In this document: positions 5,962 to 6,430 of the stretch, piece after piece
Numbering within the stretch: position 1 is the first letter of the stretch
Layout of the letters: every line of letters begins with the position of its first letter
Source: Escherichia coli
GTDB taxonomy: Bacteria > Pseudomonadota > Gammaproteobacteria > Enterobacterales > Enterobacteriaceae
Length of the DNA stretch: 64,000 nucleotides
Strand: one strand, 5' to 3'
Assembly: GCF_003334355.1 (NCBI RefSeq)
Contig: NZ_QOWP01000002.1
The notes under the pieces: model-generated
Told to the model about the DNA's origin: nothing
Database searches by the model: none
The model's input: the letters and a program-made list of their open reading frames with translations, nothing else
Position numbers and translations under genes: made by a program

Positions 5962-6430
5962 ACTGCCGTGAAGTGCGGCACCCCGTAGGTCAGACAAGGC
6001 GGTCACGCCGCATCCGACATCCAACGCCCAAGCCGGTTGCCTGATGCGACGCTGGCGCGTCTTATCAGGCCTACACCGCTGTGAAGTGCTCCACCCCGTA
6101 GGTTGGATAAGGCGGTTACGCCGCATCCGACATCTAACGCCCAAGCCGGTTGCCTGATGCGACGCTGGCGCGTCTTATCAGGCCTACACCGCTGTGAAGT
6201 GCTCCACCCCGTAGGTTGGATAAGGCGGTTACGCCGCATCCGACATCTAACGCCCAAGCCGGTTGCCTGATGCGACGCTGGCGCGTCTTATCAGGCCTAC
6301 ACCGCTGTGAAGTGCTGCACCCCGTAGGTTGGATAAGGCGGTTACGCCGCATCCGACATCTAACGCCCGAGCCGGTTGCCTGATAAGACGCTGGCGCGTC
6401 TTATCAGCATACGCCACATCCCCGGCATAC
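5962..6430. repeat. BIME/REP array: about four tandem copies of a 113-bp unit, each carrying two REP palindromes
   Basis: The motif gtgaagtgc recurs at about 5968, 6081, 6194 and 6307 (period 113 bp); units contain ggataaggcggttacgccgcatccgaca and gcctgatgcgacgctggcgcgtcttatcaggcctac REP-type palindromes; tracked ORFs here have repeated identical peptides. Confidence 0.85.

Follow-up and report, generated by a model that had tools for sequence, protein, structure and literature searches.

The eco-mqo intergenic array

The window (the whole stretch of Escherichia coli DNA that was analysed, 64,000 nucleotides) carries a tandem repeat array in the spacer between eco and mqo (Table 1). The two genes are convergent, as an earlier note made on this DNA had stated, and RefSeq names both in every E. 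coli record shown, with matches of up to 99.6% identity. The start of eco is placed in RefSeq records either at 5452 (510 nt) or 21 nt downstream (489 nt).

The earlier note had described four head-to-tail copies of a 113-bp REP-pair unit, anchored at about 5968, 6081, 6194 and 6307, and had proposed a tandem-repeat search as a check. The search confirmed this description. Tandem Repeats Finder reported a single array at 5968-6407 with a period of 113, 3.9 copies, 96% matches and 0% indels (score 803), and an ungapped repeat finder placed the copy starts at 5958, 6071, 6184 and 6297 (spacing 113/113/113). The anchor GTGAAGTG was found at exactly the four positions named. The mean column identity in the four-unit alignment was 96%, with units 2 and 3 being the same, and the G+C content of the array was 61% vs 52% in the window. 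The repetition is real and far beyond chance. Unit similarity begins at about 5958, overlapping the eco stop codon. It extends to about 6416 if a 1-nt deletion is allowed, which is required because the tail of the last Z2 REP is degenerate and reads CAG-CATAC for CAGGCCTAC. The end of the span proposed in the earlier note (5962-6430) could not be kept, since position 6430 cuts into a separate, non-REP hairpin.

On the plus strand each unit consists of a 23-nt tail linker ACCGCTGTGAAGTGCTCCACCCC, an inverted 34-nt Y-type REP GTAGGTTGGATAAGGCGGTTACGCCGCATCCGAC, a 20-nt head linker ATCTAACGCCCAAGCCGGTT and a 36-nt Z2-type REP GCCTGATGCGACGCTGGCGCGTCTTATCAGGCCTAC, in this order. The local Y REP has four differences from the reference Y and from Y-type REPs elsewhere in the window. 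Two of the four, as read from the sequences, turn a C:G stem pair into T:A, and the stem is kept. Both edge units, with a degenerate first Y and a degenerate CATAC tail in the last Z2, are kept across alleles. The array includes three copies (at 6064, 6177 and 6290) of the 11-mer ATCAGGCCTAC, the natural target of IS621, and strain 2017-02-2CC has a natural IS621 insertion at this target position of the array. Seven of the eight REPs have a GTAG/CTAC foot together with an internal stem mismatch, the exception being the last Z2, with its CATAC tail and perfect stem. With imperfect palindromes and a conserved GTAG 5' of the foot, the array REPs would qualify as substrates of TnpA(REP)/RAYT.

Table 1. 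Positions of genes, repeat units, REPs, linkers and the terminal hairpin in the window.
Feature	Position	Strand	Basis or remarks
eco (ecotin) CDS, 169-aa ORF	5452..5961	+	stop TAA 5959-5961; ORF list and RefSeq annotation
Whole array, four 113-bp units, 8 REPs; assigned to BIME-2	5958..6416	.	repeat finders, unit alignment; assigned as ortholog of K-12 REP161
Unit 1, variant v01; edge unit with degenerate Y REP	5968..6080	+	unit alignment, variant coding
Unit 2, variant v02; identical to unit 3	6081..6193	+	unit alignment, variant coding
Unit 3, variant v02	6194..6306	+	unit alignment, variant coding
Unit 4, variant v03; edge unit	6307..6419	+	Z2 stem a perfect 12-bp palindrome; CTAC tail degenerate
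Y-type REP 1, degenerate	5985..6018	-	eco-sense RNA hairpin only -10.8 kcal/mol
Y-type REP 2	6098..6131	-	GTAG foot 6098-6101; same Y sequence gyrase-cleaved in K-12 unit 4
Y-type REP 3	6211..6244	-	
Y-type REP 4	6324..6357	-	
Z2-type REP 1	6039..6074	+	36/36 vs published Z2 reference; IS621 target 6064-6074
Z2-type REP 2	6152..6187	+	RNA hairpin -21.4 kcal/mol; IS621 target 11-mer 6177-6187
Z2-type REP 3	6265..6300	+	IS621 target 11-mer 6290-6300
Z2-type REP 4	6378..6413	+	variant ATAAGAC, tail CATAC, without IS621 target
Head-to-head linker, 20 nt	6132..6151; also 6019-6038, 6245-6264, 6358-6377	.	
Tail-to-tail linker, 23 nt	6188..6210; also 6075-6097, 6301-6323; partial copy 5962-5984	.	
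Non-REP hairpin, begins 6 nt past the mqo stop on the minus strand	6413..6445	.	-22.6/-24.0 kcal/mol; K-12 ortholog is the mapped eco:mqo bidirectional terminator
mqo (malate:quinone oxidoreductase) CDS, 548-aa ORF	6452..8098	-	stop codon 6452-6454; ORF list and RefSeq

In BIME-2 elements, z2 and y REPs are joined by short linkers and repeated several times in tandem, the copy number varying between strains, while BIME-1 elements combine z1 and y REPs in a single copy with a long L linker, often with an IHF site (Ton-Hoang et al. 2012, PMC3333891). In the window four Y REPs on the minus strand, nearest to the Y reference, alternate with four inverted Z2 REPs on the plus strand, which match the published Z2 reference at 36/36 positions. 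The REP-pair composition given in the earlier note is thereby borne out. The copies (3.9, 96% identity, no indels) are in tandem, the linkers are 20 and 23 nt long, and sampled E. coli have between one and seven units. All the features of BIME-2 that can be tested on sequence were found, and by these features the array is a BIME-2. An element of the IHF-binding BIME-1 type (RIP/RIB), in favour of which the literature offers only the general remark that IHF binds to some BIMEs, is practically excluded: the REPs are z2 and not z1, they stand in four tandem copies and not in a single copy with an L linker, and the IHF core WATCAANNNNTTR had no match in the array even at two mismatches, against a background of 4.05 matches per 494 nt of the window. 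The IHF binding that the earlier note had attributed to the array was accordingly dropped, since the IHF site belongs to the L linker of the single-copy BIME-1. Pol I binding, which the earlier note had also named, is a general statement in the literature on such elements. A CRISPR-like array was rejected on inspection, the linkers being constant and unique spacers being absent. The 222-bp RRS elements were also rejected. They are located near dusC and lysO, other loci than eco-mqo, and the RRS paper treats BIME-2 only as topological barriers.

In K-12 MG1655 the eco-mqo spacer holds an array of 5.9 copies (six units) with the same period of 113, and the window array is assigned, from its sequence, as a four-unit allele of this element. 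The name REP161 was taken from the supplement of a 2026 preprint (Harris et al.); the K-12 RefSeq record is without REP repeat_region features.

Four minus-strand ORFs (5653-6144, 6003-6257, 6134-6352 and 6247-6462), which the earlier note had described as having near-identical peptides and had judged to be artefacts of the array, do exist, but only three share the peptide MRRNRLIQPTG and the fourth shares an internal part only. The minus-strand ORFs of the array measure 71-163 aa and those of the plus strand 37-130 aa, and their presence is what would speak for real small proteins. We give this reading almost no credence. As 113 is not a multiple of three, the frame shifts with every unit. 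On both strands the ORFs overlap one another, and one of them crosses eco in antisense. Their length would follow copy number, and no gene is annotated in the array in any RefSeq record listed or fetched. The judgement that they are artefacts is retained for these reasons.

Copy number, unit variants and distribution

Copy number was surveyed with two flank-only queries, from each of which 60 rows were taken at even steps through a ranking of 5,422 genomes (5,426 complete E. coli genomes in all). Counts by spacer length in the first and second sample, respectively, were 37 and 37 genomes with one unit, 1 and 1 with two, 2 and 2 with three, 0 and 2 with four, 1 and 2 with five, 15 and 13 with six, and 3 and 2 with seven. 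The array was split by an insertion in one genome of each sample. There were thus two main unit-number classes among the approximately 120 sampled genomes, one unit (about 62%) and six units (about 23%). The four-unit allele of the window was rare (about 2%). None of these complete genomes was fully without the element, and the two flanks lay within about 1.2 kb of each other in more than 99% of genomes. The cross-genome comparison suggested in the earlier note thus agrees with its claim that copy number varies by strain, the range being one to seven units.

Each distinct unit sequence was coded as one variant, so that alleles could be written as unit strings. The window reads v01 v02 v02 v03, and GF66.2, also with four units, reads v04 v05 v02 v03. 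Strain 1368KP has v04 v05 v06 v05 v02 v03, BL21 has v04 v05 v06 v05 v02 v02 v03 and K-12 has v04 v04 v05 v06 v05 v07. The differences between alleles amount to entire interior units. Six-unit alleles occur in two compositions, and therefore equal length arose more than once. The first unit of the window (v01) looks like a hybrid of v04 and v05/v02: it has ATCCAAC, as in v04, and 7 nt later CCCAAG, the state of v05/v02. Unequal crossing-over within the head linker could explain it.

Two comparisons were made between strains with identical flanks. The K-12-like laboratory strain TUM22775 lacked one of the two v04 units of MG1655 (0/1500 flank differences), and WEM25 had five units vs four in the window, with several unit SNPs (0/1400 flank differences). 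The array therefore changes at a far higher rate than the sequence around it. Strain C122 carried an off-register duplication of 121 bp. TnpA(REP) is known to cleave and recombine BIMEs in vitro (Ton-Hoang et al. 2012, PMC3333891).

Outside E. coli, one genome per species was scanned with a single exact tail-linker pattern, CTGTGAAGTGCNNCACCCCGTAGG, and four loci were found, all in Escherichia; a pattern of this kind would miss diverged arrays in other enterobacteria. The loci were those of E. albertii (7 Y and 6 Z2 REPs), Escherichia sp. E1V33 (3 units), E. whittamii (3 Y and 2 Z2 REPs) and Escherichia sp. MOD1-EC7003 (1 unit). The element lay directly past the eco stop in all four, and mqo came next in three; in MOD1-EC7003 a match to the mqo stop region was sought at the locus and none was found. 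The element is therefore older at this site than E. coli, and its linkers are locus-specific. The tail linker appears to be specific to the eco-mqo locus of Escherichia.

Gyrase cleavage and transcript ends

That the array is a gyrase site, as the earlier note had proposed, is well documented for K-12. Table DS3 of Sutormin et al. (2019, PMC6379681) lists the entry BIMEs2 2308874-2309528 (654 bp, eco>-<mqo) with 11 Cfx, 7 RifCfx, 2 Micro and 5 Oxo cleavage sites detected by Topo-seq (ciprofloxacin, rifampicin plus ciprofloxacin, microcin and oxolinic acid). The same entry reads “Espeli, Boccard 1997: 6 cuts”, which equals the number of K-12 units. The Cfx sites are at 2308988, 2309001, 2309100-2309102, 2309105, 2309214-2309215, 2309281 and 2309327-2309328 (PMC6379681), and their main series (2308988/2309101/2309214/2309327) is spaced at exactly 113 bp. 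In mapping cuts to units, the BIME start was taken to be the first G of the first Y, giving offsets accurate to about +/-2 nt; this start fits both the 654-bp length and a 9-nt overlap listed in a further table. On this assumption, a Z2 loop holds one of the 11 Cfx sites and Y REPs hold the other 10, of which nine are no more than about 2 nt away from the GTAG foot. We infer the exact placement of the cuts at GTAG from coordinate offsets, on which the 113-bp periodicity does not depend. Topo-seq reads in near-identical units were possibly mapped ambiguously. Generally, y REPs were cut far more often than z2 REPs, and the BIME-2 gyrase signal increased under transcription block (PMC6379681). 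Units 2-4 of the window have exactly the Y sequence of K-12 unit 4, a cleaved unit. By analogy, the window array probably recruits gyrase at four phased sites between the converging genes. A BIME-2 placed in a reporter stopped the diffusion of transcription-induced supercoils, and most BIME-2s sit between supercoiling domains.

The transcript ends of the locus have also been mapped in K-12. Table S16 of the 2026 preprint (Harris et al.) reuses 306 mapped bidirectional terminators, and its row 365 gives a convergent 3'-end overlap at 2305063-2305108, labelled “eco:mqo”, REP161, Convergent. In K-12 this interval corresponds to the non-REP hairpin beside the mqo stop and not to the REPs. The K-12 hairpin, AUACGCCACAUCCGGCAU..., has a free energy of -33.4 kcal/mol (Harris et al. 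2026 preprint), and its counterpart in the window is weaker (Table 1). As the K-12 3' ends of eco and mqo overlap at this hairpin, eco transcripts would cross the whole array and mqo transcripts would stop before it. The mapped terminator being the adjacent hairpin, the array is most likely a structured eco 3'UTR of about 490 nt, which would protect the mRNA and may attenuate read-through. This reading draws on a single row of a table taken from high-throughput 3'-end mapping in K-12.

The predicted RNA structure is pronounced. Folds of 511 nt had energies of -228 and -246 kcal/mol on the two strands, with z-scores of -5.7 and -5.9, and took the form of hairpin ladders. Single REP hairpins had -16.7 (Y, interior) and -21.4 (Z2) kcal/mol in the eco sense and -13.1 (Y) and -20.5 (Z2) kcal/mol in antisense. 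A search of 5400-7000 for sigma-70-like promoters gave no match. At REP325, the BIME-2-type array that has been studied in most detail, the mRNA upstream is stabilised, transcription downstream is attenuated about 8-10-fold, and truncated RNAs form a ladder. Expression is higher in convergent gene pairs that have a REP in between, and genome-wide, REPs do not lengthen mRNA half-lives uniformly.

The earlier note had suggested that the array itself probably serves as terminator/insulator of both genes. On this view RNA polymerase would be halted at the REP hairpins from either side. Its position between convergent genes fits this suggestion, as do the partly Rho-dependent attenuation at REP325, the 78 REPs that lie within mapped bidirectional terminators and, for insulation, the supercoil block in the reporter. 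However, the array contains no hairpin-plus-U-tract (intrinsic) terminator, the sole match in 5400-7000 being inside mqo (6708-6725), and nowhere does it have more than two T in a row. In K-12 the 3' ends are at the non-REP hairpin, so that eco transcripts cross all six units and those of mqo end before the array. In the supplement of Harris et al., REP161 is present only in the terminator table and absent from the rut (Rho-binding) table. We therefore consider termination by the array itself unlikely, and the terminator role was reassigned to the neighbouring hairpin.

A further possibility is that the units encode naRNA4-like small RNAs, which would bind HU and condense the nucleoid via bridged cruciforms. 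The Rfam model naRNA4 (RF02564) matched the four units in the eco sense with 62.3, 72.7, 72.7 and 57.7 bits, so that units 1-3 pass the gathering score of 59.5 and unit 4 is just below it, and a 2015 study reported that REP325 RNAs bind HU and condense DNA, which is the nucleoid role of naRNA4. The model also matches two other BIME pairs in the window, and therefore acts as a generic detector that matches effectively any Y-linker-Z2 pair. In the 2026 preprint, whose authors include the senior author of the 2015 study (Adhya), neither deletion nor overexpression of REP325 changed nucleoid volume, REP-REP contacts were absent from Hi-C and no stable ternary complex was seen. The nucleoid function is thus largely refuted for the type locus REP325 itself, and for the units described here it is very improbable.

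Interpretation and comparison with known systems

Taken together, the data point with high probability to a four-unit allele of the BIME-2 REP161, in which per-unit gyrase sites, a structured eco 3'UTR and whole-unit copy-number change are combined. The functional data (gyrase cuts, transcript ends) are from K-12, with six units, and the window strain has the four-unit allele. Each unit would provide a strong, transcription-independent gyrase site, cleaved in the Y REP at its GTAG foot or not more than about 2 nt away, as seen in K-12 and presumed for the window. The array would thereby concentrate gyrase between converging genes, where positive supercoils build up. It would be transcribed as the eco 3'UTR, with eco and mqo transcripts both ending at the non-REP hairpin beside the mqo stop. 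This 3'UTR would form a ladder of stable hairpins, of about -17 and -21 kcal/mol per REP, which by analogy with REP325 would impede 3'-exonucleases and may also attenuate read-through. Copy number shifts by whole units in register, probably through unequal recombination or slippage and possibly with the participation of TnpA(REP), and it does so rapidly enough that even strains with the same flanks differ.

The array could instead be a selfish or neutral, non-autonomous repeat, amplified by TnpA(REP) or slippage, whose gyrase and RNA effects are unselected by-products in a non-essential spacer. About 62% of E. coli carry one unit, and multiple units are therefore not required. The drift of copy number from one to seven, the unit lost in TUM22775, the off-register duplication in C122, the recombination of BIMEs by TnpA(REP) in vitro and the use of Z2 tails as IS621 landing sites would all be expected of such a repeat. 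Against it stand the occurrence of the element in E. albertii, E. whittamii and two further Escherichia species, where it occupies the same position, the failure to find a sampled E. coli fully without it, the paired C:G to T:A change that kept the stem of the local Y REP, and the enrichment of the BIME-2 class for gyrase sites and at supercoiling domain borders. We regard the neutral explanation as possible, though on the less likely side. A more speculative proposal, which we think improbable, is that unit number acts as a fast-mutating heritable dial tuning eco/mqo expression or local supercoiling. More units would then mean a longer and more stable eco 3'UTR and more gyrase between the converging genes, and lineages would differ in eco/mqo expression or supercoiling without any promoter or coding change.

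As a discovery the element has little weight, being an ordinary known BIME-2. The analysis adds some detail to what is known: an allelic series of one to seven units, with a unit-level map of in-register gain and loss in otherwise identical backgrounds, and the recurrence of published gyrase cuts with the 113-bp period. It also adds a correction, namely that the mapped terminator is the neighbouring non-REP hairpin and that the array is probably part of the eco 3'UTR. The eco-mqo locus thereby offers a convenient natural setting in which to ask if the number of REPs tunes expression.

BIME-1 elements resemble the array in being intergenic and in pairing a Y REP with an inverted partner. They differ from it in their single copy, z1 partner and long L linker with IHF site, none of which occurs in the array. 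The other BIME-2-like pairs in the window (18205-18416 and 48530-48698) also show alternating Y and Z2-like REPs and naRNA4 matches, but they have only 1.9 copies each, periods of 114 and 87 and linkers unlike those of the array. REP325 (yjdM-yjdN; the source of naRNA1-6 and of RF02564) is likewise a tandem Y-linker-Z2 array downstream of a gene, with the same polarity relative to that gene. However, its period is 100 vs 113, its head linker is 13 nt vs 20 nt (7 nt longer in the array), the tail linkers are unrelated, and it lies between tandem genes of one operon, whereas the eco-mqo array lies between convergent genes.

The closest known system is REP161, the K-12 BIME-2 “eco>-<mqo”, which has the same locus, 113-bp unit, edge units, flanking genes and terminal hairpin as the window. 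K-12 has six units and the window four, the first of which is the hybrid variant v01. The last Z2 of the window has ATAAGAC, which makes a perfect stem, and its terminal hairpin, with a 2-nt bulge and a shorter stem, is weaker than that of K-12. Publications on this K-12 ortholog already cover the element and its class, as well as its cleavage by gyrase and its variable copy number.

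Unit number and register of the array

The eco-mqo array of TUM22775 (L016), a K-12-like strain recorded as 'Laboratory developed', contained five units, unlike that of MG1655 (L006), which contained six. No differences were found between the two loci in the flanks (0/1500). The array of MG1655 opens with two identical v04 units, and TUM22775 lacked one of them. Either the unit number changed during laboratory culture, or the repeats were collapsed in the assembly. In E. coli C122 (L018) the eco-mqo spacer was 837 nt long and possessed an off-register duplication, of 121 bp and not 113, which took in the flank AAACTGCC adjoining the eco stop codon. 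The 113-bp register is not universal among array expansions. The start of eco itself is recorded inconsistently in RefSeq, at window position 5452 or 5473. The CDS is accordingly 510 nt or 489 nt long and the product 169 or 162 aa, of which the longer form is in the window ORF list.

Hairpin stability in and beside the array

The commonest interior Y REP variant of the array (e.g. 6098-6131) formed a more stable hairpin in the eco sense (-16.7 kcal/mol) than in the antisense (-13.1 kcal/mol), because one of its stem positions is G-U in eco-sense RNA and C-A in antisense RNA. The terminal non-REP hairpin varied in sequence among alleles. In K-12 (2305063-2305108) it had a perfect 18-bp stem (-33.4 kcal/mol), whereas in the window (6413-6445) and in many other strains it carried a CC bulge and/or GGCACAT replacing GGCGTAT, at about -23 kcal/mol. 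Termination efficiency at this hairpin might therefore differ among lineages.

Other elements in the window and the IS621 target

Additional REP elements were found in the window (see table), and both BIME-2-like pairs were matched by Rfam naRNA4 at 76-80 bits. MicF, a known antisense sRNA, was also matched, as expected for this part of the chromosome.

REP elements, IS621 target 11-mers and MicF in the window
Feature	Position	Strand	Detail
BIME-2-like Y + Z2-like REP pair	18205-18416		period 114, 1.9 copies
BIME-2-like Y + Z2-like REP pair	48530-48698		period 87, 1.9 copies
Single REP	41732		Y
Single REP	50152		Z2-like
IS621 target	6064-6074		perfect, in array
IS621 target	6177-6187		perfect, in array
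IS621 target	6290-6300		perfect, in array
IS621 target	41710	+	further copy
IS621 target	48575	-	further copy
IS621 target	48663	-	further copy
MicF (Rfam)	14454-14547	+	116.8 bits (gathering score 79)

In one strain, E. coli 2017-02-2CC, the first Z2 REP of the eco-mqo array was interrupted by IS621 (L015, 3700-5467), an element of the IS110 family with a bridge-RNA recombinase. The junctions, marked here by slashes, read CTTATCAGGCCT / IS...ACAGTATCT / ACACCGCT and agree exactly with the published natural target of IS621, ATCAGGCCTAC.
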